From Candidatus Poriferisodalis sp. (GTDB lineage Bacteria > Actinomycetota > Acidimicrobiia > Acidimicrobiales > Poriferisodalaceae): a stretch of 64,000 nt of DNA. The notes below the pieces were generated by a model that was given only the letters and a program-made list of their open reading frames with translations, had not been told where the DNA came from and did not search any database. Positions 11,909 through 33,179 of this stretch are shown one piece after another (within the stretch, counting starts at the first letter, position 1; each line of letters opens with the position of its first letter). The stretch is taken from positions 1,244,200 to 1,308,199 of the forward strand of contig NZ_OZ240249.1 of assembly GCF_965198245.1 (NCBI RefSeq). Direction: 5' to 3'. Position numbers and translations under genes: made by a program.

Positions 11909-13501
11909 CTAGTCGCTCACACTCCGTGCTGGTGACATGACAACGTCGAGTGTCGGGTGCTTCGGGTCGAATCTGATCTTCTGTAGATCGAGAGCGGTGA
12001 GCGGATCGTCGTCTGCCTGCAACCAATCGAGCTCTCGGAGCCACATCGGCTCAAGCACTGACCGGAGTTCATCCGTCAGTCGTGTACCAGCTCGACAGCG
12101 CACGACCGATGCATCCATGCCACCGAGTGCGTAGACGGCCCACCTCCGGGCCGGCTCGTCCTCGTCGCACGCATCGAGAAGTGTCTCAACGTCGTGGATA
12201 CGGGCAAGGACATTTGCTGCGGCTGCGGCCTTGCGCTGATCGCCACTGCCCAACCAGTCCAGCAAGGTCGTTCTGGTCGCGTCGGAGACGGAGTCGATCG
12301 CGCTAACGGCGTGGACGGCAACGAGCGGATTGTCGTCAAGCATGACCGGTATCAAGCGGTCAGGGCTTGCGGCAGCACCCTGACCAACGCCCCATGCAGC
12401 CGCGGCGCGCACATCCTCATGCAGGTCAATGTTTGTCGCGATGTCGAATAGGGCCTCAAGAGCCGCTGATGCATCAACTTCGGTAAGCGCGAGCACGGCC
12501 TCCATCGACCGCTCGTGCTCCTCACTGGCGTCCATCGATGCGGCAATCAGTGGTACCCAATTTCTTGAGTCGCTTCGTGCAAGTGCAACTTGGGCTTCGA
12601 GCCGTATTCGCCAATCCTCCTCAGCGTCATGGGCAACATTTCTGAGGAGCTCGATCACTTGCGCATGAGGCTGGGTACCGACTGCACGCATCGCTGCCAG
12701 GCGTTCAACTTCGTTCGGGTCTTGCAGCGCTGCAGACACGTCCCAAATGGCCCCCGGACACGAGAGCGACTCGGGTGGTGTGACGATGCCTGCGACGATC
12801 TGCTCGCCGGGCTCAAACTTGTCGCCCGGCGCCAAGTAGACGTGACCTTCGCTTGGCCAATCACGCCACTGCCAGTAACTCCGCCGCTCGCCGGTTTCTT
12901 TGCGAACGGCGATCCGGCCATCAGAGTCAACGCACTCGAAGGTGCCTCCGAATTTGGGTGACCAGCTCTTCCACTTCATCATCAGCTCGGATCCATCCGA
13001 CTGTGACTTGCGACCTGAGCGCATGGCGTGTGTCTCACGAGCGCGAAGTGCCGCGGTTGAAAACCAGACGGGATCAGCCACGTCTGGTGGGAACTCGTCC
13101 TGATTCGACCGGACGCGCATGAACGCGTACAAGTCGGAATCGCGCATCCCTCCGTCGTCCCACCGTCGTCCCGGTGTGTCCGAGTGCGAAAGCACGATCT
13201 CCAACGTGGACTTGGCGCGAGCTTCGATCCTGAGACCGCACTGGGTGCAGACGAGGTCGGGCAGGCGGAGGCGCTTCACCTTGGATTGCCAGACCTTGTT
13301 GGCCGTCGCATAACGCTCTAGCTCAATGGGCTGGTGGCCGTGGCGCTCCCGCAGGACATCGGCGGCCACGGCGGCGCCGACGGCACCCATCGCGACGAAG
13401 CGAGCAAATTTCGCATCTTCCTTGAAACCCACTGCCGCGCCTGCTCCCTCCGGCATGATGTGACATATGACCCGACGCGCCAACGCTAGGGCCGCTTCCA
13501 A
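11909..13501 (-). CDS. Hypothetical protein: N-terminal ~240 aa with a tentative PD-(D/E)xK-like signature, C-terminal ~290 aa of HEAT/PBS-lyase-like repeats. Candidate partner of the adjacent DNA methyltransferase.
   Basis: N-terminal segment IELERY...LPDLVCTQCGLRIEARAKS resembles E...PD...ExxxK nuclease cores, though not canonically. The C-terminal half has repeated helical units of the VRxxAAxALG type (DWRIRLEAQVALARS, HEDVRAAAAWGVGQG, QRKAAAAANVLARI, EPARRWAVYALGG). The start is more likely Met16 at 13456, because 13501 overlaps the divergent MTase start. Confidence 0.5.
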   Translation of the reverse strand: MEAALALARRVICHIMPEGAGAAVGFKEDAKFARFVAMGAVGAAVAADVLRERHGHQPIELERYATANKVWQSKVKRLRLPDLVCTQCGLRIEARAKSTLEIVLSHSDTPGRRWDDGGMRDSDLYAFMRVRSNQDEFPPDVADPVWFSTAALRARETHAMRSGRKSQSDGSELMMKWKSWSPKFGGTFECVDSDGRIAVRKETGERRSYWQWRDWPSEGHVYLAPGDKFEPGEQIVAGIVTPPESLSCPGAIWDVSAALQDPNEVERLAAMRAVGTQPHAQVIELLRNVAHDAEEDWRIRLEAQVALARSDSRNWVPLIAASMDASEEHERSMEAVLALTEVDASAALEALFDIATNIDLHEDVRAAAAWGVGQGAAASPDRLIPVMLDDNPLVAVHAVSAIDSVSDATRTTLLDWLGSGDQRKAAAAANVLARIHDVETLLDACDEDEPARRWAVYALGGMDASVVRCRAGTRLTDELRSVLEPMWLRELDWLQADDDPLTALDLQKIRFDPKHPTLDVVMSPARSVSD

Positions 13502-15272
13502 CGGACAGGCCGGGCTTTTCGGCCCGGCCAGCGAATCAGTTCATTCGCTACCAGATTCGGTCACCGTGAAGCGTTCCGATCCGGTGTACATGGCGCACGC
13601 GTACTTGACGAAGGTTCCGGTGGCGGCGGTCGTCCCATTCATCGACGCTATGACCGCACCTGGCGACATCGTGCTCGATCCCTTCGCAGGGTCCGGCATG
13701 ACCGGGGTTGCTGCGCTCGTGGCAGGCCGACGTGCTCGGTTGTTCGATGTATCGGTGCTCGGTCGGCACATTGGTAGCAACTACGCCAATCTCGTCGACA
13801 CAGGATCTCTTCAACGGCATGGCGCGGAAGCGGTTGAACGAGCGCGCGAGGTTGTCGGGGACATCTACGGCTCGACGTGCTCTGCATGCGGAGGACGCGC
13901 CGAGACTGCAAAGGCCATCTGGTCGTGCGTGGTCGAGTGCGGGGGCTGCGATGCCCGCGTCAACTACTACGCGTCCCTTCGAGAAGCCGACTGGCACAAG
14001 GCCGCGATGGCCTGCTTCCGTTGCGGGGAGACAGTTGGCAGCCGTTCATCGAGGACAGGTGAGGAGCCGGTCGTTGACTCGGTCGTATGCTCTTGTGCCG
14101 CAATACAGCGCGAACAACCCTGGTCTGAGCCGCTCGAGGTAGCTCAGGAGGCCGACCTGACTTGGCCCGACGTTCCAATCGAGCCGACACGCCAGATGTA
14201 CCAGGCATCGGCGCTCGGGCGTCACGGCCTCACTTCGACAGCGACCTTCTACAGCACACGGAATCTCTGCGCACTTGCAGCTTTGCGCGACGCGATCGAC
14301 GCAACGGATGACTCTGCGATCCGCCGCAAGCTTCTCTTTGCGTTCACTGCAATCCTGACCCGCGCAAGCAAGCGATACCAGTGGTCGCGTCAACGACCCC
14401 TGAATGCGGCGAACGCGAACTACTACATCGCGCCGGTCTTCTACGAGTGGAACGTGTTCGACCTCTTCACCCGAAAGGTCGATGCAGTTGCCCGGTCGGA
14501 CGAATGGATACGGGCACGTAGATGCGAACGCGGACTGGTCGCCGGAGTGGAGAACGGGGACGTCAGGTACGACGTCGCTTCCGCCACATCCCTGCCGCTA
14601 GAAGACGAGTCTGTCGACTACGTCTTCACCGATCCGCCCTTCGGCTCGAACATCTTCTACTCAGACATGAGCCTGTTCCAAGAGGCGTGGCTGCCAGGTC
14701 ACCAGCTCACTGATGCGGGACTAGAAGCGGTTGTGGACAGGACAGACACCGGGTCGTATCGCTCACCGGATCGGTACGAGGAGATGTTGACGGAGGCGCT
14801 ACGCGAGTGCCGCCGCGTCTTGAAGCCGAACGGCTATATCACTCTGCTCTTCGGCAACAGCAGTGGGGGTGTCTGGCGTCTCTTGCAACGAGCGATTGCT
14901 GCAGCCGATCTCGTTGTCGTGCCCGAACTCATTGCGACGCTCGACAAGGGCCAGCGGTCAGTCAAAGGCCTTGCATCTGGATTCGAGCATGTCTCGACGG
15001 TCGATCTAATGTTGACGATGACCAGCGGTGTTCCACCGGCTTCGGTGGCAGTCCCGATGTCTGCGGAACTCGAAGATGTCGTCCGGGGGATCACCTCGCG
15101 TGATGGTGAGCTCAGCCCGAGCCAGTGCTACGTGGAGGCTGTGCGCGAGGGATTCCGACGTGACTGGGACCTGTCAGCTATCGACCTTGGAGCGGTGACC
15201 AAGCTGCTTCGCGAAGCTGACTATGAGGTTGATCGGCGGACTGGCATGCTTCGCCGCAAGTCGGCCGCCTGA
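13467..15272 (+). CDS. N6-adenine/N4-cytosine DNA methyltransferase. The SAM motif I comes before catalytic motif IV, and a Cys-rich Zn-ribbon insert lies between them.
   Basis: Motif X/I block HAYLTKVPVAAVVPFIDAMTAPGDIVLDPFAGSGMTGVAA near the N-terminus. Catalytic DYVFTDPPFGSNIFYSD at about aa 395, followed by RVLKPNGYITLLFGNS. Four Cys pairs (CSACGG, CVVECGGC, CFRCGE) sit in the presumed target-recognition region. Confidence 0.8.
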   Translation: MTRRANARAASNGQAGLFGPASESVHSLPDSVTVKRSDPVYMAHAYLTKVPVAAVVPFIDAMTAPGDIVLDPFAGSGMTGVAALVAGRRARLFDVSVLGRHIGSNYANLVDTGSLQRHGAEAVERAREVVGDIYGSTCSACGGRAETAKAIWSCVVECGGCDARVNYYASLREADWHKAAMACFRCGETVGSRSSRTGEEPVVDSVVCSCAAIQREQPWSEPLEVAQEADLTWPDVPIEPTRQMYQASALGRHGLTSTATFYSTRNLCALAALRDAIDATDDSAIRRKLLFAFTAILTRASKRYQWSRQRPLNAANANYYIAPVFYEWNVFDLFTRKVDAVARSDEWIRARRCERGLVAGVENGDVRYDVASATSLPLEDESVDYVFTDPPFGSNIFYSDMSLFQEAWLPGHQLTDAGLEAVVDRTDTGSYRSPDRYEEMLTEALRECRRVLKPNGYITLLFGNSSGGVWRLLQRAIAAADLVVVPELIATLDKGQRSVKGLASGFEHVSTVDLMLTMTSGVPPASVAVPMSAELEDVVRGITSRDGELSPSQCYVEAVREGFRRDWDLSAIDLGAVTKLLREADYEVDRRTGMLRRKSAA

Positions 15273-22849: not shown

Positions 22850-23097
22850 GGGACCTCGCGACCTGCTGCATCGGGGTGGCGGGCGATCATCATGTTGGCG
22901 ATGGAGCGCACCACCGTGGTGCCGTCCTGGTTGACGAGTGCGTGGGTCATCTTGATGATGCCGCGGTCGGGTTTGGAGCGGCTCGGGCGAAGCTCCAGAA
23001 TCTCGATCACGATTGTGAGACGGTCGCCTGGGTGCACCGGTGCCAGCCAGCGCAACTCGTCGAGGCCGGGCGAACCCATGCTTGACGGCCCCAGCAC
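22846..23097 (-). pseudogene. 3'-terminal fragment (last ~72 codons) of a MaoC-like dehydratase gene. Duplicate of the 3' end of 32703..33179 and left boundary of the island.
   Basis: 63/72 aligned residues are identical to aa 85-156 of the intact gene. It lacks the N-terminal 84 codons, including the hot-dog helix. DNA copies are 22879..23094 and 32712..32927. Confidence 0.8.
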
Positions 23098-23283
23098 GTG
23101 ATCTCCCTCGGCGCGCGGACCGCGCAGGTTTGATTCTGACCAGCGGAAACCGAAATGAACGTGTCGTCAGAGCGACGGCGAAACCGAGGAAACCCCGGCA
23201 GGAGCAGCAATTCTCCGTTCAGTTCGCCGTGGGGGGTGCGGCCGCGATTTCTGATCCGAGAGCCCTTCTGCGGCCACTCAGTT

Positions 23284-23652
23284 TCACCAGATTGGCAAGT
23301 CTCGGACCCGAATCCTCGTGGGACTGAGCGAGACGACAGCGCCGGCTTCCAGTGCCTCCGCCAAGACCGGGAGGCTCTCCACAAGCAGAGCCGCATGCGC
23401 ATCCGGCGACTGGTGAGACACGCCTCGCAAGTGGATGACTGAAGGACTCACCGAGCGGCGCCGAAACAGGAGTGCTCCGAAATCCGAATCAGACGTGGCC
23501 ACGACGTACCCATGCTCCGCAGCCCATTCCAGGATGGTCTCATCCGCTGCGGTAAGCATGTCCACGTCGCCGACATGGAGGGTTTCATGGCCGCCAGCCC
23601 TGAGTGCTCCTGCGACTCGTGGAGACAGGTTGGCGTCGAGGAGGATTCTCAC
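23284..23652 (-). CDS. DUF5615-family PIN-like (Mut7-C-type) putative toxin
   Basis: MRILLDANLSPRVAGALRAGGHETLHVGDVDMLTAADETILEWAAEHGYVVATSDSDF is the typical DUF5615 N-terminus. 4-nt overlap with the upstream DUF433 gene. Confidence 0.7.
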   Translation of the reverse strand: MRILLDANLSPRVAGALRAGGHETLHVGDVDMLTAADETILEWAAEHGYVVATSDSDFGALLFRRRSVSPSVIHLRGVSHQSPDAHAALLVESLPVLAEALEAGAVVSLSPTRIRVRDLPIW

Positions 23653-23885
23653 GCAGACAGGGAAGCGGAGAGTTCTCTCTCGCTGACCCGGGCGGCGGCA
23701 AACTCAAGTGCCGCCGTGATGTCGTCCGTCTCGAGATACGGATAGTCGGATAGCAACTCCTCACGGGTCCTGCCAGCGGCAAGCTGTCCCAGCACCGTTG
23801 CAACGGTCACCCGCAGATCCCTGATGCAGGGCAGACCGCCCATGCGGTGAGGATCAACAGTGATCCGGTCCAAGAGCACGGCCAC
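23649..23885 (-). CDS. DUF433-family putative antitoxin
   Basis: 78 aa. ITVDPHRMGGLPCIRDLRVTVATVLGQLAAGRTREELLSDYPYLETDDITAAL matches the DUF433 pattern. Confidence 0.7.
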   Translation of the reverse strand: MAVLLDRITVDPHRMGGLPCIRDLRVTVATVLGQLAAGRTREELLSDYPYLETDDITAALEFAAARVSERELSASLSA

Positions 23886-23969
23886 AGGCTAATCCGCGCA
23901 CGCCCGAAGCACTGCCAGCAATGCTGTCGTGAGATTGCTGGCTGTTCTGCCGTGATTCTGAGCCAACTT

Positions 23970-24075
23970 CTACCGTGAAATCGGCTAACAGGTTCTCGTC
24001 CGCTGCGAACAGCATGTCCACCTGACCGACATGCATCGCCTCGTGGCAGTTAGCACGGGCCCCCTGTTCTCGCGT
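23970..24075 (-). pseudogene. Decayed remnant of a second DUF5615-type toxin gene
   Basis: Minus-strand translation NCHEAMHVGQVDMLFAADENLL parallels GGHETLHVGDVDMLTAADETIL of 23284..23652. The DNA is also visibly similar (about 23990-24045 vs 23555-23600). There is no intact N-terminus or partner antitoxin. Confidence 0.5.
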
Positions 24076-24228
24076 CGGACTTCGTCGGCGCTGGCCCTCA
24101 GTGCGTGGCTTCGGACCAACCATCGGGCCCCCGTCACCTGTCCGGTACGTCTAACCGACCACCCGGCTTGGAGTCCATGGTCGCATTCTCGCCCACTCCA
24201 CGCCGCCAAGAACTTCAAGGACAATGAG

Positions 24229-27200
24229 TCATGACGCGTACGCAAGCAGAGCATCGAGGACTCTGAATGCTTCACCGCGAACCAGTTCGTCGTGATGAGC
24301 CTGATTGCGGTAGGTCCGCAGGCAGCCATAGCAACTCGCTTTCAGGGCGCACGCGCAATCGCCGACGATTTTCCTTGCCTGATCCGTGAGTTGCGCGAGT
24401 TCCTCACGAATCAGGCGGACGTAGCCGGCGCCGCCCGGCACCGAGTCGAAGATGATCAACGCAGTGCCGCCGCCATCAGGAAGAGGACGCAGTGTTCCGT
24501 CGACGTCATCGGTGGGAATGCCGAGCACCGGGGTTGCGGCAAGCAACGATTGCAGGGTGCTGCGCGCTTCGATTCGGCTAAGCGGCCTCTTCAAGTCAAG
24601 TTCGAGTACGTCGGTCAGAAAAGTATGTCCAAGGTCAAGAACGCGCGGTCGTCCGCTGCATTCTCGTTGAGAACCAGGCCTGTTGTGGGTTCTCGGAGGC
24701 TTCTTTCGGTCTTGGTTGACGAGTGGTTCTCCATACCCGCACGTCAGACACATTCGAAAGCCTCGTGATGCCGGTCCAGCGTTGATGGCGGTGATCTGTC
24801 CCTGCCGACTGAAGCGAGCACCGATCGTGACGTTTTCTATCGGTGCCTGCTCCCACGGGGGCTGTTCCCCTTCGTAGTCACTGAAGAACGAACGTGCCCA
24901 ACCCGCTCGAGGCGGCCGGGTCTCCCCAGGCTGTTCCCGACTCCTGTAGCCGATGAAACCGAATTGCGGTACGACGAATTGCCGCTCGGCGATTGGGTTG
25001 CTGCAGGCACTGCACGGTGGCGCGAGGTGATGATCCTCGGCATCGAAATCGCGTCGTACACGAAAATCGCCGCACTTCTGACACTCGGAGTAGGAGCGTG
25101 CATAGAGTGCCCGACCCGGCGGGGCTCGCAATCCGTCGGATTCCCAGATGGCCTTCTTCGCCACCACCTTGGAACCTGGTGCGTACTCGGTGATGCCCCA
25201 GCGCAGGTCTCTGTTGAGATCGAGCGCTCCGGCGTCACGGTCGCCGTCGCGCCAAAGATCCAGTACGGCGACGTCGACCGGGAACCCGTACTTGGGCAGA
25301 ACAACGCGCGTCGCCAAGTAGTCAATCAATGGTCGCTTCTCCAAGGTGGCTTGGACCCGCCTCAGGGCACCTCGGCGGTGGGCTTGCTTGGACGCGGCGT
25401 CGCTATGTCCTTGGTTGGACAATTGGCGCTCTTGTTGGTCTGCGTCTTCGATTGCACGTTCGATCTCTGCCAGATCCTCTCGAATCGATTCAGCGGCGCG
25501 CCTGAGCGAGCCAGCGGGTTCGTCGGCTTGGTTACCAGTAGTGCCTGCGGTCAAGTGGTCGACCCATTCCCACGTCTGAACACCGAGTTCTGGGGCCACA
25601 GCCTCCGGCGTAATGCGAGCTATCGCCCGTCCGAGTTCCTCCGGATATGAACGCAGCCAGTCGACAAATTCGTCGACCGCAGCCGGTCGGCCATCTGTGG
25701 GGCGAAAGAACGACGCCACATCCCTGTGCGGTTCGCGCCCCGTGGTCGCGATGCGGCGCTCGAATGCCGCGAACGCCACGGCGTGAATATGCCGTCGCAC
25801 AATCTGCGAATTCCGTAGCGACACGATCGGCACCTCGACGTGTCCGTCGATGAGACGCTGAGGCTCTCTGAAGTGATGGAGGTCGTGGCTGCGGCGCTGC
25901 GCGAATGTGACAACCAAGGCCGACTTGCCGGCTCGCCGGCCGGCCCGGCCGGCCCTCTGCACATAGTTGGCCGGCGTCGGCGGTACGTTGCGCATCAATA
26001 CCGCCTGCACGTCGCCGACATCGACGCCAAGTTCGAACGTCGTCGTGCAGCTCAGAGCGTTTATCCGGCCATCGAGGAAGTCCTGCTGATATGTGCGGGC
26101 TTGGTCGGCTGAGAGCTGACCTGTGTGCTCTTGAACGCTCATGCCCGAAGGAACCAGCGTCGTGTAGAGCCGCCCATAGTGATCGGAGGCAGACAAGTCG
26201 ACATCGGTCACGGGACGCAGCGAACCCGCGCACTGCCAAGTGGGACATACGTCGTTCACACTTCGCCATGCAACCTGCCGACAGGTACGGCACACATAGG
26301 CGGGATGTCCTTCTCGGGCTGGCACGAACCGGATCCACTCGGGGTCGATTGCGAAGGTGTGTCCCGTTTGTCTTCCGCTGCGGGACGGGAATGCCTTGTC
26401 CCAACCGCTGCCCCGGTCGGTGAGCCATCTCCATAGGCCGTCGAGAATCACCCGCTCGTCGGCCACTGCACCGCGACGGTCCAGGACCTTGTGCAGGTAA
26501 TCCATGCGACGATTCGTGCCACGGGTGGGCAGCCATGACAGCACCTTCCCGGCGCTGCCTTCCGCGCGAACCGTGGTCACGACGTTTCGCGGAGCGAACA
26601 CCTGCTCATCGATGCTCACGCCGTCAGGCAGCCAGACAGCGGCCTGCATTCGCAATGTGTCCAGCAAGACCGCCACGATGTCGAATACCTCGGCATCGCT
26701 GAAACCGAGCTGTCTCAGAGGCTCGGGCGGTCGAGCGCGTCGCGGCACGGCGACAGTGATCTCGCCGAGCCCGCTGCCGTCGAGGCTTTGACGACGATCT
26801 GTCGCCAATACCTCGGCCATCAGCCACGTTCGCACTTGTCGCCGCTTGGAGTCGCCGCTGGCATCTGGGTCGAGAACAAGATGGTCTTCTGCGAGCCTCT
26901 GGATAGGCAACACGAGATCGTCGAACCGCAAGTCGTCATCGCTGTCCCGGTCAATTGCCAGCCAGATCATCCGGCGCTGGACGGCGCGGGCGTAGGTGCG
27001 TTCGAGGTACGGCGCGAAGAAGGCCGCGTCTTGGCGGCTGTCCGCAAACATCAGCAGCTTGCGACCCTCGCCGATCTCAGGCACGACACCAGCCGGGATG
27101 TCTCCGGGCGGCAGCGCCTGATACAGGCTGGTTGCGGCCACTGCGACGGGCGCGTCTTGCCCGGTGAAGAAGCGCAGCACGATCTGGCCGTTCGTGCGCC

Positions 27201-28764
27201 CGGAACAAGTGGGACATCGGCGGAGCGGGTCATTTGGGCGCTTGGGCTTGGCGAAGACGATTCGTTCTGAGGCACCGGTCGCTCCGCAAGGACAACGTTC
27301 CTCCCCTGAGTCGCTCAGGCGACCGCAAGCAGTACAGACATGTCGGTAGTCGACCTCAGCCTCCACCTCTTCGTCGTCGACAACAGCGGCCTCGTCCTCG
27401 TCGTCGGTTTCGAGTTGTCGGCCGATCAGCAGGTAGGCCAGATTGGTTCGCTGCGGCGGTGCTTGGACCAGCCGGTCCGAGTGCTCAGGTTCTGCGGCAT
27501 CGATAGTGGCATCTTGGAGACTTCCCACGAGGAAACCCGCACCACAGCGAACGCAAAGGCCGAGTTCGAACATCTGCGAGTCGACACCGCTGTCGTCACA
27601 GCTCGGGCAGGTGTGATGTCGCTCAAGTTGCACCCTCGGTGTCGCGGGGTCGTGTGCCGGTGATCGGCACACGAAGGCGCCTTCTAGAGCCCGCAGCATG
27701 TAATGGAAGCGAGCTGGTGCATCGGTATCCGGCTCATCGACGGACGGTGTCACGATGTCCTGTCGCGCAGATTCGGTTTCGTGGTGCTCGATCAGCTCAC
27801 CAAACAGATCGGAGGCGAATCTCGCGATTCGGGACGAGGCACCCGTGCCGGTACCGAGCGTCGCAGAGGTGCCAACGAACTGCAGGCGACCGGGCTGGCT
27901 TTGCACCACGCGGTCGCGCAGACGCCGCAGCAGCATGGCGATTTCAGCGCCACGCGCGCCGTTGTATACGTGCATCTCGTCGAGCACGATCCAGCGCCAA
28001 TGCTCTCCGGTCGGGCCGTCGAACAGTGTCGTATCAACGGGCCGCAGCAGCAGATACTCGAGCATTGCGTAGTTCGTGAGCAGAATGTGGGGCGGGCGCT
28101 CTCGCATCTCTTCCCTCGACACAAGTTCGCCGTTATCGGGGTCAGCGCCCGTAGCGCCACGATGTGCTTCTACGCCCTCGCGGTGCCGCTCTCGCGTTGC
28201 GCCGATATACCGCCCGAACGTGATCTGGGGAAAGGGCCGCAGTAGATCGCGTAAGCGCTGCATCTGATCGTTGGCGAGCGCATTCATCGGGTAGAGCAAC
28301 AACGCTCGCACCCCGGGTTGACTCAGCGTCCCGGCATCGCCTTCGGTAAGGAGTTGATGCAGAATCGGGAAGAGATAGCACTCGGTCTTACCCGATCCCG
28401 TGCCAGTCGCGATGACTAGATTGCGACGCGCCACAGCCTTGCGCAGAGCGCCTTCCTGATGCTGATACAGAGGTCGCGCTGGCGGGAACACGCCCGGGTC
28501 CAGTTGAGTGAAGCGCTCATGCAGCAGCCCTGTCGAGACAAGATCACTCAGCGAGGCGCCGGTGGCATAAGCGGGAGTCGGTTGACGAAATGGGCCCTTC
28601 TCGCTCTGGAATCGCTCGTCCAGAGCAAGATGAACTTCTGCGCGCAGCGACGCGTCGGCCGGCGAGTAGCGGGTCTTCAAGTAGCGCCGATACGACTCGC
28701 CGATGCTCTTCGCAGCGGCGGCAGGATCGAATCCTGCTGCGTCGGAGTTGCGGTACTCAGTCAC
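24229..28764 (-). CDS. Large (1511 aa) SF2 DExH-box helicase with a multi-Zn-ribbon insert between the RecA lobes and a C-terminal DUF1998 (MrfA-type Zn-binding) domain. DruE/DrmA+DrmB-like.
   Basis: Motif Q/I YQHQ...ATGTGSGKTE, motif II DEMH, motif III TSATLG, motifs V-VI TTTFELGVDVGD and QRAGRAGRR. CxxC pairs (HHTCPSCDD..CVRCG, CTACG..CPCG, CPTCSG) lie between the lobes. C-terminus CLTCGYGE ... CACALKASCYGCLRTYRNQAHHDELVRGEA is the DUF1998 signature. Confidence 0.85.
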   Translation of the reverse strand: MTEYRNSDAAGFDPAAAAKSIGESYRRYLKTRYSPADASLRAEVHLALDERFQSEKGPFRQPTPAYATGASLSDLVSTGLLHERFTQLDPGVFPPARPLYQHQEGALRKAVARRNLVIATGTGSGKTECYLFPILHQLLTEGDAGTLSQPGVRALLLYPMNALANDQMQRLRDLLRPFPQITFGRYIGATRERHREGVEAHRGATGADPDNGELVSREEMRERPPHILLTNYAMLEYLLLRPVDTTLFDGPTGEHWRWIVLDEMHVYNGARGAEIAMLLRRLRDRVVQSQPGRLQFVGTSATLGTGTGASSRIARFASDLFGELIEHHETESARQDIVTPSVDEPDTDAPARFHYMLRALEGAFVCRSPAHDPATPRVQLERHHTCPSCDDSGVDSQMFELGLCVRCGAGFLVGSLQDATIDAAEPEHSDRLVQAPPQRTNLAYLLIGRQLETDDEDEAAVVDDEEVEAEVDYRHVCTACGRLSDSGEERCPCGATGASERIVFAKPKRPNDPLRRCPTCSGRTNGQIVLRFFTGQDAPVAVAATSLYQALPPGDIPAGVVPEIGEGRKLLMFADSRQDAAFFAPYLERTYARAVQRRMIWLAIDRDSDDDLRFDDLVLPIQRLAEDHLVLDPDASGDSKRRQVRTWLMAEVLATDRRQSLDGSGLGEITVAVPRRARPPEPLRQLGFSDAEVFDIVAVLLDTLRMQAAVWLPDGVSIDEQVFAPRNVVTTVRAEGSAGKVLSWLPTRGTNRRMDYLHKVLDRRGAVADERVILDGLWRWLTDRGSGWDKAFPSRSGRQTGHTFAIDPEWIRFVPAREGHPAYVCRTCRQVAWRSVNDVCPTWQCAGSLRPVTDVDLSASDHYGRLYTTLVPSGMSVQEHTGQLSADQARTYQQDFLDGRINALSCTTTFELGVDVGDVQAVLMRNVPPTPANYVQRAGRAGRRAGKSALVVTFAQRRSHDLHHFREPQRLIDGHVEVPIVSLRNSQIVRRHIHAVAFAAFERRIATTGREPHRDVASFFRPTDGRPAAVDEFVDWLRSYPEELGRAIARITPEAVAPELGVQTWEWVDHLTAGTTGNQADEPAGSLRRAAESIREDLAEIERAIEDADQQERQLSNQGHSDAASKQAHRRGALRRVQATLEKRPLIDYLATRVVLPKYGFPVDVAVLDLWRDGDRDAGALDLNRDLRWGITEYAPGSKVVAKKAIWESDGLRAPPGRALYARSYSECQKCGDFRVRRDFDAEDHHLAPPCSACSNPIAERQFVVPQFGFIGYRSREQPGETRPPRAGWARSFFSDYEGEQPPWEQAPIENVTIGARFSRQGQITAINAGPASRGFRMCLTCGYGEPLVNQDRKKPPRTHNRPGSQRECSGRPRVLDLGHTFLTDVLELDLKRPLSRIEARSTLQSLLAATPVLGIPTDDVDGTLRPLPDGGGTALIIFDSVPGGAGYVRLIREELAQLTDQARKIVGDCACALKASCYGCLRTYRNQAHHDELVRGEAFRVLDALLAYAS

Positions 28765-29626
28765 CCCAGAAATCCTCGGCGGAGTTCTCGATGTGATGCA
28801 GGCCTAGGGCGAGCAGGATGCTGCGCGTCGTCAACAGTGGGGCGATCTCGGCAGCGTCACGTAACGCAGTCGCAGCCTCAGCCGTGTCTGCCCGTCCTGA
28901 CGAGCTGTCGATCAGGTGAAATGCGGCTGCGAGGACATCTGCGGGGAACTTGTGCCACGCAGGCCTTTCCGACTCAGGCCGGACCAAGTCGAGCAGGGTG
29001 AGTTGCCGGGCGCTGAACCTCTGGGCGTAGGAGTAGACCGCATTGTGCGATGAGCGCCAATGCCTGATGCGCTCACGGTCTGGTGACCTGCGGCTGCCCG
29101 GTGCTCGGGCTGGCTCGTGCCAAGTGTTGGTCAGCATCTCGAACGCCGCATCGAGGTAGCCGCCCCACTGCAGCGGCAATGAACCGGATGGCGGCAAGGC
29201 CTGCTGCAATTCCCGCAACCTCTCTGGCCCGAACTCGTCGAGCGGAGGGGTGACGGGCTCGATTCGACCTTCAATTGGTGCCGCGCCAGTTGCGGGTCGC
29301 CAACCGCTGAAGCGTTGCCACCGGTCGAGGCTCGCGTCGGCGAGATCGCTCGGACTACTGCCGACGAACGGATTGTCTAGCGCCGCGGCTACGGTCGGGA
29401 GGGTCTTCCACAGGCGCTCCAGATCCCAATCTGTGTATCCGGCCGAGCCGTGAGCGGATGCGACGATGGCTAACTCGAGCTTGCGGAGAACCTGCGCCGG
29501 AAGCTCGGCGAGCATCGGGGCCAGACGCGGCAACAGACTGTCAGAGGTCAACACCAACTCGACGAGGTCGACCAAGGTATTCGATGCTCCTGCATTCGTC
29601 GCACTGAGCTGTGCCGCGGCCTCCAT
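28757..29626 (-). CDS. Hypothetical 289-aa protein, middle gene of the helicase operon
   Basis: Its stop overlaps the helicase start by 8 nt. Mostly helical-looking, with no motif recognised. Confidence 0.6.
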   Translation of the reverse strand: MEAAAQLSATNAGASNTLVDLVELVLTSDSLLPRLAPMLAELPAQVLRKLELAIVASAHGSAGYTDWDLERLWKTLPTVAAALDNPFVGSSPSDLADASLDRWQRFSGWRPATGAAPIEGRIEPVTPPLDEFGPERLRELQQALPPSGSLPLQWGGYLDAAFEMLTNTWHEPARAPGSRRSPDRERIRHWRSSHNAVYSYAQRFSARQLTLLDLVRPESERPAWHKFPADVLAAAFHLIDSSSGRADTAEAATALRDAAEIAPLLTTRSILLALGLHHIENSAEDFWGD

Positions 29627-29680
29627 GGCACTAGCGAGTTCGTCGGTTGCGGAGGCTGCTGCGCTGATATCCAGGCTCTT

Positions 29681-32335
29681 TTAACGGGCGGCACCTGCGA
29701 CGACAAGCTCGAGCGCCTCGAGTGGGGCCTCGGTGCGAAGACCCTCAAGTCGGATCCGCCGCTGCAGTTCCGATCCGACGAGCACATCGCGTGTGCCTGC
29801 TTGGCCGGGAATCGGCAACGTTGGCGAGGACCACTCATCGGCCAAGGTGACTTCGGCCACGTAGGGACCCGGCGGCAGCAGCAGGATTGCCTCGCATCGG
29901 CCAGCGACGTCGTCCTCCACTTCGACGCAAACGGGCTGCTCCCACGGCCGATGCTCTGACCAGAGCCGGAGTTGGCGACCAGTGAACTGGCGGTTCTCCG
30001 TCCACTCGGCGCTGACAAGGCACTCGGCGGTCTCCGGGTCGAGTTCCGTGCTGATCTCCAAGTCGCTCACAATGAACTGTGCCTCTACCACGGCGATGGG
30101 CTCGCTCAGGTCGTCGACATGGAGGATGAGATCTAGCCGAGGAGCCGTCGCAGCGGCGATTGTCGTCCGCAGTTCGGCAAGCGAGAAGGACCACCACCCG
30201 ACCGGGCTATTGGTTTGCAGAGGCCCGATCTCGTAAGGGCTTGCGTCACTGCGCAGTTCAAGTCGCAGTGTTGCCGGCCGACCGCATCGAACCAAGACCG
30301 ACCCGACTGCGCCTGATTCAATCTCGTCGAGTCCGATTCGCAGCCGCTCAACTCCGAGGGTTGGGAAGGATCCGTCGGTTCGGCGAAGCGCCCAGGTCAA
30401 TCGAGGAATCGTGACAGCGAAGGCGGTGCCGCCGGCTGTGAGGGGAACGGTGTCCTGGCCTGCCTCAAACGACAACCTCGCTTCTGAAACTCGCGCACCG
30501 CCTTCGAGAAGGAGTTCGGCATCCGCGGTGACGCGAACCTCGACGACCTCGCGCGGTACGAAGATGCGATCAGGGACATCGACGGCGAGTCCCTGAATGA
30601 CGGTTATGTCCTCGCGAATGTCGCTGCCCAATGGGCCAGACACCTCGATCGTGCCCGCGAATGCAGGGGCAGAAGGCAAGAGCGCCGCCAATTCAAATGC
30701 GCCCTCCGCACACGGCAAGTCTGCGAGTCGCGTAGTGGTCGGCGAGCGATTCTCGGCCGACGCATCTGTGGCAGGTTCGCTTTCGCTTCGAATCTCGCGC
30801 CAACGGACGCGCCACCTTTGTGGATCGGCGTCCTCGGGCATCGCAATACTCGGTGGCTCAGCGAACACGCCGCCGCCGAGCATCCCTCTTGTGCCACTGA
30901 CCGGCGCCGTCGCCAATTTGGGCCGTGCGGGGGCTCGGGCCACGGCCAGCTCCGTCAATTCCTCATCGCCGCCCGGCCCAGGAGGAGGCTTCACCAGCAC
31001 GGCAGCTACCCCCTCGAGGTCGAAGCTTCTCAGCACCCAGCCATTCCATGCGCCTGCCCGCGGAGGAAGTTCCTCTGGACTCGGGATGGGCATTCCATCG
31101 GAGTCGGTGATGGCTACGCCTGGTGATGTCAGAATCAACGCTTGGCTGGCGGGCAGCCGGTGCTGCTGACGTGTGAGATTGCCGGAGGCATCGAACACGT
31201 ATGCGTGAACCCGCTCCAAACCCGCAAACTGTCGCTCCGACTGCCGGTTGGCCGAGTGCTCGCGCCACTCAAGCGTTGCAGTCCAGCCATGCGACGGCGC
31301 GAGCGGGATATCGCGCGGATCATGCCTGCGCGTCGCGAATCTGTGTGTCATAGCACCCTGGATCAGCCACCCGCCTTCATGCGGAAAAGGCGGAAGCGTC
31401 ATGTACGGACCATCACACGAGTAGCGGTCGATTCGGACAGTGGGTCGAGGCGGACGTCGCCCACGCCGGGCCGAACGTCGTTCGTCGTTGAGCAGGGCCC
31501 GCGTCAAGTACCGGGGCAGTCCTGCGTCGGCAGAGAGTTCTGCGATGAGGTCGGTCGCGTCACGTCCGAGTTCGGCGATGTCGGCGGCCGTGTCGATCAC
31601 CCGCTGCAGAAGGTCGCTGGCAAATTCGTCGCCATACTCGAAGAAGCGTTGTACTGGCTTCGCAAGTCCTGACCAGCGGGTGCTGGACTGTCGTATGCGA
31701 CCGATGAGCTCGTCGGCATCCCAGATGCCATCGCGCAATCCGGCAAACACCAAATCTGCGACTTCGTCTGCGCACGCAGCAGGGATGCCTCCGTGCATGA
31801 GAATCGGGCTCACATACGCGAGCCAGCGTTCTCGAGCCGCCGCGTAGCTGAAGTTCTCGAGTCCGAGTTCGTCCAGTGCCGACAGAAACGCCCTGCCTAC
31901 CTTGGACTGATCGACACCTGATGAGAGGTACGGGGCAATGGCAATGTTGGGCCAGAACGTACCTTCGTCGTAACAGCGCGCACCTTCGGCGGCGAGAAAT
32001 GCTGCAGTCGAGGCGGGGTAGCGCTTCAGGCGATCAGGCACACCGTGCTGGGCGACCTTGAGGACGACGTCTCTAGCCCTCTTGAGAATCGATCCATCAG
32101 CGGAGAGGTCGAGTTCGCTGACAATGCGAATGCCGTCGAAATGACGTCGAAGCTCGCGTTCGACGAAGTACGGGTTGTCGGTGGATTGCCGCGGTGCTTG
32201 CTGTTCATCATCCGCATTACCCGTGGACATATGTGAAACGTATCCGGCTTGCATCAGCCGATGCCCGATGTGTGGCCGCAGGATCTCGAGGCCAGAGCTG
32301 TCCGTGCTGGTGCACTGGGCAGTCGATGGGCCCAA
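29681..32335 (-). CDS. Hypothetical large protein (up to 884 aa), first gene of the helicase operon. Helical N-terminal half and a beta-rich (Ig-like?) C-terminal half.
   Basis: Long ORF with coding-like composition, 54 nt upstream of the 289-aa gene. I could find no Walker, nuclease or methylase motif. The listed start is a TTG; Met28 (32254) or Met36 (32230) are alternatives. Confidence 0.6.
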   Translation of the reverse strand: MGPSTAQCTSTDSSGLEILRPHIGHRLMQAGYVSHMSTGNADDEQQAPRQSTDNPYFVERELRRHFDGIRIVSELDLSADGSILKRARDVVLKVAQHGVPDRLKRYPASTAAFLAAEGARCYDEGTFWPNIAIAPYLSSGVDQSKVGRAFLSALDELGLENFSYAAARERWLAYVSPILMHGGIPAACADEVADLVFAGLRDGIWDADELIGRIRQSSTRWSGLAKPVQRFFEYGDEFASDLLQRVIDTAADIAELGRDATDLIAELSADAGLPRYLTRALLNDERRSARRGRRPPRPTVRIDRYSCDGPYMTLPPFPHEGGWLIQGAMTHRFATRRHDPRDIPLAPSHGWTATLEWREHSANRQSERQFAGLERVHAYVFDASGNLTRQQHRLPASQALILTSPGVAITDSDGMPIPSPEELPPRAGAWNGWVLRSFDLEGVAAVLVKPPPGPGGDEELTELAVARAPARPKLATAPVSGTRGMLGGGVFAEPPSIAMPEDADPQRWRVRWREIRSESEPATDASAENRSPTTTRLADLPCAEGAFELAALLPSAPAFAGTIEVSGPLGSDIREDITVIQGLAVDVPDRIFVPREVVEVRVTADAELLLEGGARVSEARLSFEAGQDTVPLTAGGTAFAVTIPRLTWALRRTDGSFPTLGVERLRIGLDEIESGAVGSVLVRCGRPATLRLELRSDASPYEIGPLQTNSPVGWWSFSLAELRTTIAAATAPRLDLILHVDDLSEPIAVVEAQFIVSDLEISTELDPETAECLVSAEWTENRQFTGRQLRLWSEHRPWEQPVCVEVEDDVAGRCEAILLLPPGPYVAEVTLADEWSSPTLPIPGQAGTRDVLVGSELQRRIRLEGLRTEAPLEALELVVAGAAR

Positions 32336-32378
32336 AATGCGTTGCCGAACCGGGCGGCGTGTGTTCTAGCGTGAGGTC

Positions 32379-32651
32379 ATGACAGCGGGCATGATGGCAG
32401 CGACACAGCTTGTCGTCGAGGCGTGGGCGGTACTCGTAGCCGCCGCGGGCATCGTCGCCAGCGTGCTCGGCACCGGCTTGGGCATCACCTTCCACCTCAG
32501 CGGACGCATCGACCACCAGTCGGATCGCATCGACCACCAGTCCGACCGCATCGACGGCGTGACCGCCGAGGTCGCCTTGGTGCGTGAGCGCGTAGCACGC
32601 CTGGAAGGCAGCTCCGGCACACCCGATCCGGGTCCGTTGCAGCTCGCCTGA
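32379..32651 (+). CDS. Small (90 aa) membrane-anchored protein with a tandem heptad repeat (RIDHQSD x2.5)
   Basis: N-terminal TM helix (AVLVAAAGIVASVLGTGLGI). The repeats are encoded by 21-bp units at 32505..32525, 32526..32546 and a partial unit at 32547..32555. Divergent from the 884-aa gene (44-bp gap). Confidence 0.4.
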   Translation: MTAGMMAATQLVVEAWAVLVAAAGIVASVLGTGLGITFHLSGRIDHQSDRIDHQSDRIDGVTAEVALVRERVARLEGSSGTPDPGPLQLA

Positions 32652-32702
32652 GCAAGCCCCTCTCGACGCTGCCCGCAGTGAGCGATCAGCACTTCGAGGG
32701 CT

Positions 32703-33179
32703 TCATGTGCGGCGGGCCATCATCATGTTCGCCACCGCGCGCACCACCGTGGTGCCGTCCTGGTTGACGAGTTCGTGGGTCATCTTGATGATGCCGCGGT
32801 CGGGCTTGGAGCGGCTCGGGCGAACCTCCAGAATCTCGACCACGAGGGTGAGAGGGTCGCCTGGATACACCGGTGCCAGCCAGCGCAGTTCGTCGAGACC
32901 AGGCGAACCCATGCTCGATGGCCCCAACAGGTATTCACCCAGCATCCTCATCATGATCGAGCCGGTATGCCATCCCGACGCGATGATCCGGCCATAGACG
33001 GTGTTTCGGGCTGCCTGGGGATCGATGTGGAAGGGCTGCGGGTCGAACTTACGGCCGAATTCGATGATCTCGGCCTCGTCGATGGTCGTCGTTCCGAACG
33101 TAAAACGTTCACCGGCCTCGTAGTCGTCGAACCATCGCTGCGGGCAGGGAATGTCGCTGGGCATCGTGACAGTCTGCAC
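32703..33179 (-). CDS. MaoC-like (R)-hydratase / hot-dog fold dehydratase, intact copy
   Basis: 158 aa. FDPQPFHIDPQAA...GRIIASGWHTGS is the MaoC hydratase motif. Lies directly downstream of aceE on the same strand. Confidence 0.8.
   Translation of the reverse strand: MQTVTMPSDIPCPQRWFDDYEAGERFTFGTTTIDEAEIIEFGRKFDPQPFHIDPQAARNTVYGRIIASGWHTGSIMMRMLGEYLLGPSSMGSPGLDELRWLAPVYPGDPLTLVVEILEVRPSRSKPDRGIIKMTHELVNQDGTTVVRAVANMMMARRT

Follow-up and report, generated by a model that had tools for sequence, protein, structure and literature searches.

Which system a large helicase serves, and whether the copy at hand still works, is the question raised by a 64,000-nucleotide stretch (the window) of the 4.39-Mb contig of Candidatus Poriferisodalis sp., a sponge symbiont. 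The helicase gene, druE, lies on the minus strand at 24229..28764, begins with GTG and encodes a 1511-aa superfamily 2 (SF2) helicase of the YprA family (RefSeq WP_419552286.1). Together with the gene directly upstream, it probably constitutes a Druantia type III-like, III-B-style two-gene anti-phage module on an island of ~9.6 kb, in which the partner of the helicase has been broken by a recent stop codon.

The helicase and its assignment to DruE

The protein is laid out as RecA1 (residues ~99-323), an insert of Zn modules and a cap (~345-870), RecA2 (~872-1057) and an OB-CON-MZB region (~1184-1503). The open reading frame (ORF) and all the SF2 motifs quoted in a first-pass annotation of the same DNA were found again, with GTGSGKT at 121 (within ATGTGSGKTE), DEMH at 262, TSATLG at 299 and QRAGRAGRR at 936, and Pfam matches DEAD at 1.2e-21 (101-304) and Helicase_C at 8.1e-13 (873-944). 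The C-terminus, which the same annotation had described as of the DUF1998/MrfA type, carries CLTCGYGE at 1339 and CYGCLRTYRNQAHHDEL at 1478, and the MZB/DUF1998 domain (MrfA Zn-binding, PF09369) is matched at 1.1e-10 over residues 1411-1482, fused to the helicase. At least three Zn modules had been proposed between the RecA lobes, and an alignment of the window protein with 14 homologues from other genomes (15 sequences) bears this out. The inter-RecA cysteines are arranged as C386/C389 with C404/C407, C477/C480 with C491/C493, C517/C520, and C825/C828 with C840/C845, and those at 404-407, 477-493, 517-520 and 825-845 are invariant in all 15 proteins, as are the OB-CON-MZB cysteines at 1228-1254, 1339-1369 and 1472-1481, the four MZB residues C1339, C1342, C1478 and C1481 among them. 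Less conserved are C386/C389 (0.73-0.8) and C1470, the range being 73-93% of the 15 sequences. Since the clusters are kept across the homologues, the Zn modules are real features and not a chance pattern.

The first-pass annotation had placed the protein closest to Druantia type III and had suggested a scan with defence-system profiles, and the outcome of the PADLOC scan agrees with it. The helicase matches DruE1 at 2.8e-181 and DruE3 at 7.4e-170, and seven DruE models lie below 1e-108 (the weakest at 6e-109), whereas the E-values of the competing BrxHI (1e-30), DpdJ (8e-27) and DrmA (8e-18) models fall short by 150 or more orders of magnitude. With TIGR03817, the YprA-type model of NCBIfam, the score is 154 bits, far below the cutoff of 874. 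Among solved structures, the nearest in sequence is PDB 9tu7 (chain Y; 7.6e-82), a 2108-aa DEAD/DEAH helicase which we take to be an E. coli-type DruE, and the alignment to it covers RecA1 (99-323), RecA2 (872-1057) and OB-CON-MZB (1184-1503) of the window protein. The YprA structure PDB 6znp is matched at 3.7e-23; with 751 aa against 1511 aa, the original estimate of about twice the size of MrfA is accurate. Searched against plasmids with tblastn, DruE finds only matches of at most 33% identity.

Compared with its larger relatives, the window protein is reduced at two places. First, it ends 8 residues past the MZB alignment block with 9tu7, while the 9tu7 protein runs on for another ~390 residues, and no PLD nuclease was matched in it by the Pfam or PADLOC scans. 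Because it stops straight after the Zn domain, it is without a C-terminal PLD nuclease; in the E. coli DruE, the ~390 C-terminal residues correspond to two PLD-like domains (10.64898/2026.05.12.722862). Second, ~105-125 aa are missing after residue 344 in the window DruE and in its orthologues at two related loci, L001 and L002 (the latter in OZ246894.1, an Acidimicrobiales metagenome-assembled genome), whereas the segment is present in the 12 other relatives and in E. coli DruE (~343-445). By its place in the alignment, the missing segment is identified as the helical domain right after RecA1, which is termed “BrxA-like” in Bell et al. (PMC12458937) and “five-helix domain” in Hu et al. All three druE genes are intact ORFs of 1511-1513 aa with a ratio of nonsynonymous to synonymous divergence (dN/dS) of ~0.12-0.14, and the protein therefore represents a lineage-specific minimal DruE rather than one in decay. 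On the strength of the profile matches and domain order, the window helicase is assigned as DruE, the signature protein of Druantia, in a compact, nuclease-free form.

The partner protein and its relation to DruH

A single large co-directional partner stands directly upstream of druE and no other system genes accompany the pair, which is the arrangement of Druantia III. The complete partner frame occupies 28757..32230 on the minus strand, comprises 1157 codons from the ATG at 32230 with a single internal TAA, and overlaps the druE start by 8 nt. The association of the two genes extends well beyond this genome. A partner-relative scan, with one genome per species, found 61 loci, 44 of which have DNA reaching past the partner gene, and in all 44 of these informative loci a DruE homologue is next on the same strand, mostly overlapping or abutting the partner; the exceptions in spacing are one locus where DruE lies 0.4 kb off (L026) and another with a 531-aa ORF in between (L044). 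The hosts belong to about six phyla and include Acidimicrobiia and other Actinomycetota, Chloroflexota, Bacillota, Planctomycetota, Acidobacteriota and Binatia. Partners range from 1013 to 1716 aa and the DruE proteins are mostly of 1580-1670 aa, with one of 2023 aa, and in a full HMMER search the partner family amounts to 1669 clusters at 50% identity. The partner and druE are a mobile, conserved two-gene module.

Some of the linked proteins have additional parts: a Chloroflexota partner (L025:7989-12026) has an MzaA-like C-terminal region (1.7e-57), a Bacillota partner (L053:7935-12926) has an SMC/LmuB-like coiled-coil insert, and a Planctomycetota DruE (L037:11642-17713) is extended at the C-terminus by ~350 aa.

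The architecture of the partner was examined in an AlphaFold model of an intact homologue, P0002, which has a mean predicted local distance difference test score (pLDDT) of 82.4. The model consists of helices at 20-247, approximately six beta-sandwich domains at 264-818 and helices again at 821-1154, and Foldseek searches with it against BFVD and an April 2026 copy of the PDB without DruH coordinates return only tandem arrays of immunoglobulin-like (Ig), FN3 and macroglobulin (MG) domains. The published DruH has a helical N-domain, six Ig-like domains and a helical C-domain, and the predicted three-part fold of the partner matches it when the two are compared by description. Within the N-domain of the partner family, E39, H146, D206 and R210 are near-invariant.

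Several observations weigh against a III-B-style module with a DruH partner. The top PADLOC DruE model for the helicase is that of type I (604 bits), slightly above the type III model (566 bits), and the BrxA-like/five-helix domain, described as common to the Druantia/ARMADA lineage, is missing from the window DruE. On the side of the partner, 12 PADLOC DruH3 models recognize the E. coli YjiT control, and no member of the family, of 45 scanned, is matched by any of them; the NCBIfam model YjiT_fam (NF038336) likewise finds nothing on the partner and gives the E. coli DruH control 1272 bits. When 80 partner sequences were compared with 29 canonical DruH sequences in hhalign, the probability was 7.6% (E 0.0046). 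Finally, the split partner of the window, described below, might still work.

The weak sequence signal has, on the other hand, a consistent form. The hhalign alignment is collinear, pairing 26-647 of the partner with 31-673 of DruH over 557 columns, and direct profile searches give weak, repeated matches of the first Ig-like domain at equivalent positions (best 10.5 bits, E 5.7e-4 among 115 sequences). Taken apart into N-domain, Ig array and C-domain, the hhalign comparisons are not significant. DruH diverges much faster than DruE (PMC13192584), and the weakness of the signal fits this. Other routes to a named relative gave no result: sequence and profile searches of the PDB with the partner had no match, a word-indexed search for homologues of the partner alignment led to no named protein of an actinobacterium, cluster look-ups of ten partner-family members of 1128-1137 aa gave no organism link to Mycobacterium, and tblastn of the partner against plasmids had no match. 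The absence of a Pfam match on the partner is uninformative, since the E. coli DruH control (PF27205/PF27201) is also unmatched. In the portion of the Bell et al. supplements that was available, neither the clade of the window nor the III-B partner is listed. Transfer by a rigid offset of the residues mutated in Mycobacterium smegmatis DruH (D240, R536, E842 and others) agrees at chance level, the method being too crude to count either way. For these reasons the partner is named here DruH-like, a DruH by its predicted architecture and not by sequence profile.

The same evidence admits a different, rather unlikely reading, in which the locus is a distinct Druantia-like subtype and the partner an analogue of DruH, that is, another Ig-array protein recruited to a nuclease-free DruE, so that the sensing or effector step may differ from that of type III-A. 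It would account for all DruH profiles missing the 45 members although the positive controls work, for the low hhalign probability, for the size and coherence of the partner family, and for distant members with extra domains of the MzaA-like and SMC/LmuB-like kinds. The partner nevertheless resembles DruH in length, three-part architecture, position and overlap with druE, and both the collinear alignment with its recurring first-Ig matches and the published fast divergence of DruH speak against this reading. We thus regard it as doubtful that the partners are an independently recruited Ig-array family of at least 1669 clusters which the PADLOC DruH, NCBIfam and Pfam profiles all miss. If they were, a widespread Druantia subtype would have gone unannotated, the Poriferisodalis DruE would be the smallest natural DruE and would show which accessory domains are dispensable, and the nuclease step would be placed in the conserved N-domain of the partner, with its E39, H146, D206 and R210.

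The interrupted partner gene

In the window, the DruH-like frame is read as two pieces. The N-terminal fragment (29681..32230, minus; RefSeq WP_419552288.1) has 849 aa followed by the premature stop, and by homology to the P0002 model it is predicted to hold the helical N-domain and all of the approximately six Ig-like domains; a longer ORF of 884 aa is possible from a TTG at 32335, which is probably not used as a start. The nonsense codon is the TAA at 29681..29683 (minus), codon 850 of the partner, in the context ...AGAAR*KSLDIS. The C-terminal fragment (28757..29626, minus; RefSeq WP_419552287.1) is a 289-aa ORF which begins at an internal ATG 18 codons past the TAA, has no obvious Shine-Dalgarno sequence ahead of that ATG, and makes up the greater part of the helical C-domain. 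Searched for homologues, the 884-aa ORF finds an identical 849-aa protein, P0001 (hypothetical, Candidatus Poriferisodalis sp.), and many proteins of 1110-1230 aa, the intact orthologues having 1155-1165 aa, and the 289-aa ORF aligns to residues 869-1153 of P0002 with 81% identity. The two ORFs are therefore one gene of 1157 codons with an in-frame stop, and what the first-pass annotation had taken for a three-gene operon consists of two genes.

Where codon 850 was inspected in intact homologues (P0002, P0003, P0006 and P0327), it specifies Ser throughout. The change in the window is a nonsense mutation of the TCA-to-TAA type, located near the predicted boundary between the Ig array and the C-domain. 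The metagenomic P0327 is intact, has Ser850 and is 98.8% identical to the window protein with only 13 other differences, which indicates that the mutation is very recent. On either side of the stop dN/dS is ~0.2, and the split partner has kept all 39 residues that are conserved in the family. The partner orthologue in L002, which is syntenic and likewise sponge-associated, has an independent in-frame TAA at codon 101 (L002:8301-8303), where other sequences have Tyr, and its druE is intact despite that stop; the partner in L001 is intact. As read from the gene structure, the stop at codon 850 takes off the C-domain and breaks the putative translational coupling to druE. In E. coli DruH, deletion of either end abolishes defence, and by analogy the Druantia system of this strain is probably inactive or weakened.

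An exception to inactivation would be a re-initiated 289-aa C-domain that reassembles with the rest, so that the 849-aa and 289-aa pieces, held together non-covalently, and DruE would cooperate as a working system of three polypeptides. The stop does fall near a predicted domain boundary, the C-domain starting from ~821, an in-frame ATG follows within 18 codons, the published DruH C-domain packs on the N-domain via a large interface, the conserved residues are intact in both pieces, and RefSeq annotates both as proteins. We nevertheless consider such an assembly improbable. In addition to the missing Shine-Dalgarno-like sequence, the first two helices of the C-domain would be cut off from its remainder, the existence of a near-identical intact strain makes the split too recent for selection to have tested it, the only other split locus, L002, has its stop at codon 101, which makes no sensible domain division, and the deletions at either end of E. 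coli DruH are not tolerated.

As a separate observation, the two genes of the module differ in their relationships. The window partner is much nearer to that of L002 (synonymous divergence, dS, of 0.26-0.39 and, over both parts of the gene, 83-89% aa identity) than to that of L001 (dS ~0.9), and the window druE is about equally far from both (dS 0.84 and 0.91). This mismatch suggests that recombination may have been shuffling partner and helicase alleles.

Known systems, genomic setting and significance

Among the described systems, the module with its DruH-like partner is most similar to Druantia type III-B, which consists of a compact DruE without PLD and one partner, DruH (PMC12458937; 10.64898/2026.05.13.724758). 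The likeness comprises two genes with a ~1100-1200-aa partner directly upstream of DruE (Bell et al. 2025, PMC12458937; Himpich et al. 2026), the domain order NTR-RecA1, Zn-module/cap insert, RecA2 and OB-CON-MZB with no PLD, and an actinobacterial source of the published example. Set beside the window by description, the III-B reference (GIH50614.1) differs in being listed with a BrxA-like/five-helix domain, which the window DruE is without, and the window partner differs in its premature stop codon. In type III-A, represented by E. coli and P. aeruginosa, DruH is of the YjiT family and DruE has ~2100 aa (PDB 9tu7 series). This type has a DruE homologous over RecA1, RecA2 and OB-CON-MZB, the same gene order and coupling, and a DruH which by cryo-electron microscopy has the architecture predicted for the partner. 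The E. coli III-A DruE, however, has beyond the window protein the ~390 C-terminal residues with two PLD-like domains, an insert longer by ~200 residues and the five-helix domain, and the III-A DruH profiles (PADLOC DruH3 and NF038336) miss the window partner. The experimentally validated DruH-DruE pair of M. smegmatis (MSMEG_1253/1254; PMC13316683) is likewise from Actinomycetota and consists of two overlapping genes, for a partner of 1132 aa and a DruE of 1667 aa. In size the two proteins agree with the relatives of the window proteins (partner 1100-1200 aa, DruE 1600-1670 aa), and the spacing from the Walker A Lys to the DExH Asp differs, with K119/D225 in M. smegmatis DruE and K126/D262 in the window protein.

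MrfA/YprA and the DrmA and DrmB of DISARM share with the window protein the YprA helicase core and the MZB/DUF1998 Zn domain. MrfA, in contrast, has 751 aa without a Zn-module insert, which is described for all defence YprA helicases (PMC12458937), and is paired with the MrfB exonuclease, while the window protein has no exonuclease neighbour; in DISARM the MZB canopy is split off as DrmB and DrmC (PLD) and a methylase are added, whereas in the window the MZB is fused, PLD is absent and the nearest methylase (13467-15272) is 9 kb off, beyond housekeeping genes. Earlier, the locus had been judged to fit neither DISARM nor MrfAB, which is right for both, but the oddity of this was overstated, as a compact DruE with one partner is the published III-B. 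Genes of Druantia I and II (DruA-D, DruM/F/G) were not found beside druE by PADLOC or flank annotation, and companion genes of ARMADA were not found within the island (23098-32702).

Remnants of type III systems may also be recognized in a well-studied genome. In E. coli K-12 MG1655 (4572414-4576855; L062:12415-16856), yjiT, encoding a truncated DruH of 505 aa, lies with the pseudogene yjiV beside mcrBC, and yjiV is labelled a DEAD/DEAH box helicase in other K-12 annotations; the two have the look of a decayed Druantia type III system. In strain N61, a Mu-like Gin/Mom segment splits this same druH, and an intact druE of 2114 aa comes after it.

The earlier statement that the mechanism of such systems is essentially unknown has been overtaken by several papers and preprints of 2026 with structures and biochemistry of DruE and DruH. 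The type III-A DruE is a dimeric 3'-to-5' helicase which loads on exposed single-stranded DNA (ssDNA), 3' overhangs and forks. DruH has been reported as an ssDNA binder at the interface of Ig5 and the C-domain, where ATP competes, as a 3'-5' exonuclease whose active site lies in the N-domain, and as a nuclease that depends on dimerization and probably senses late phage proteins; the M. smegmatis DruH is reported to be activated by a phage minor tail protein, with a required interaction between DruH and DruE. In an intact module of the type seen here, a DruE dimer would load on phage DNA under replication, at stretches of exposed ssDNA or at fork and 3'-overhang junctions, and then unwind it 3'-to-5', while the partner would bind or process the ssDNA ends, or sense phage structural proteins, and license or complete the destruction of the phage DNA. 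As the DruE carries no nuclease, any cleavage would come from the partner or from host enzymes. Expression of druE would be translationally coupled to the partner through the 8-nt overlap.

The surroundings of the module bear out the earlier description of an acquired island beside toxin-antitoxin genes. The 3' end of maoC, ~225 bp, is present twice, as a duplicated copy at 22875..23097 (minus) on the island border and, with ~90% identity, at 32706..32930 (minus) within the intact maoC gene (32703..33179). This direct repeat, resembling an att-type target duplication, brackets 23098-32702 (~9.6 kb) with the toxin-antitoxin pair and the dru genes, and no integrase lies between the copies; the layout suggests an island inserted at the 3' end of maoC. 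The G+C content at third codon positions (GC3) is 0.68-0.73 in the dru genes versus ~0.80-0.85 in the flanking genes, which supports a foreign origin. L002 has a single copy of the maoC end and no toxin-antitoxin pair. The module adjoins aceE in L001, where the locus is rearranged, and maoC/aceE in L002, and was therefore acquired before the lineages split. In L001 aceE lies on the opposite side of the module, and an extra copy of the druE 3' end (L001:6653-7033, 80% identity to window 24256-24636) is located upstream of the partner.

The neighbours of druE are the partner gene, a DUF433/DUF5615 toxin-antitoxin pair, maoC, aceE and an alpha/beta hydrolase, so that the absence of an adjacent methylase, PLD nuclease or MrfB was correctly noted at the outset; the genes within the island likewise include no methylase, PLD, MrfB, BrxHII, PglX or DruA-D/M/F/G, and PADLOC finds nothing in the ORFs upstream of druE. 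The intact pair lies downstream of druE and is composed of a DUF5615/PIN-like toxin (23284..23652, minus; 122 aa; PF18480, 6e-24) and a DUF433 antitoxin (23649..23885, minus; 78 aa; PF04255, 2.4e-22), which overlaps the toxin start by 4 nt, and a degraded fragment of a second DUF5615 toxin is found at 23854-24123 (HEAMHVGQVDMLFAADENLL). A scan for promoters and terminators gave sites no commoner than in shuffled sequence. On the opposite strand, the 470-bp gap between maoC and the partner contains a 90-aa ORF (32379-32651, plus) with a host-like GC3 of 0.82, a hydrophobic N-terminus and the heptad DHQSDRI repeated 2-3 times in tandem, without a Pfam match; it is a candidate gene. Further away, 9 kb from druE, a HEAT-repeat protein (11909-13501, minus) and an N6/N4 DNA methylase (13467-15272, plus; GC3 0.69) lie in a stretch of lower G+C (0.62-0.63), and 11909-15272 may be a separate foreign segment, apart from the Druantia genes.

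That the helicase is instead a housekeeping DNA-repair enzyme of the MrfA/YprA type is very improbable, for the shared YprA core and MZB domain, the match to 6znp and the position next to aceE in three related genomes are set against a protein of twice the size of MrfA with a Zn-module insert typical of defence clades, a DruE score of 604 bits versus 154 bits for the YprA-type NCBIfam model (cutoff 874), constant pairing with a large partner in six phyla and unrelated contexts, low GC3, flanking repeats and the lack of MrfB.

The locus is, then, an unexceptional example of a known defence system, probably impaired, and it leaves the known picture of how Druantia works unchanged. Standard defence finders would call an orphan DruE here because the DruH profiles miss the large partner family, so that Actinomycetota, Chloroflexota and Bacillota probably have more Druantia III-like systems than are counted, and the partner alignments could seed a new profile. 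A natural minimal DruE, without PLD and five-helix domains, is also useful for asking which accessory domains the helicase mechanism needs. Finally, the independent nonsense mutations in the partners of two related sponge symbionts, both with an intact druE, hint at recurrent loss, or cost, of the partner.

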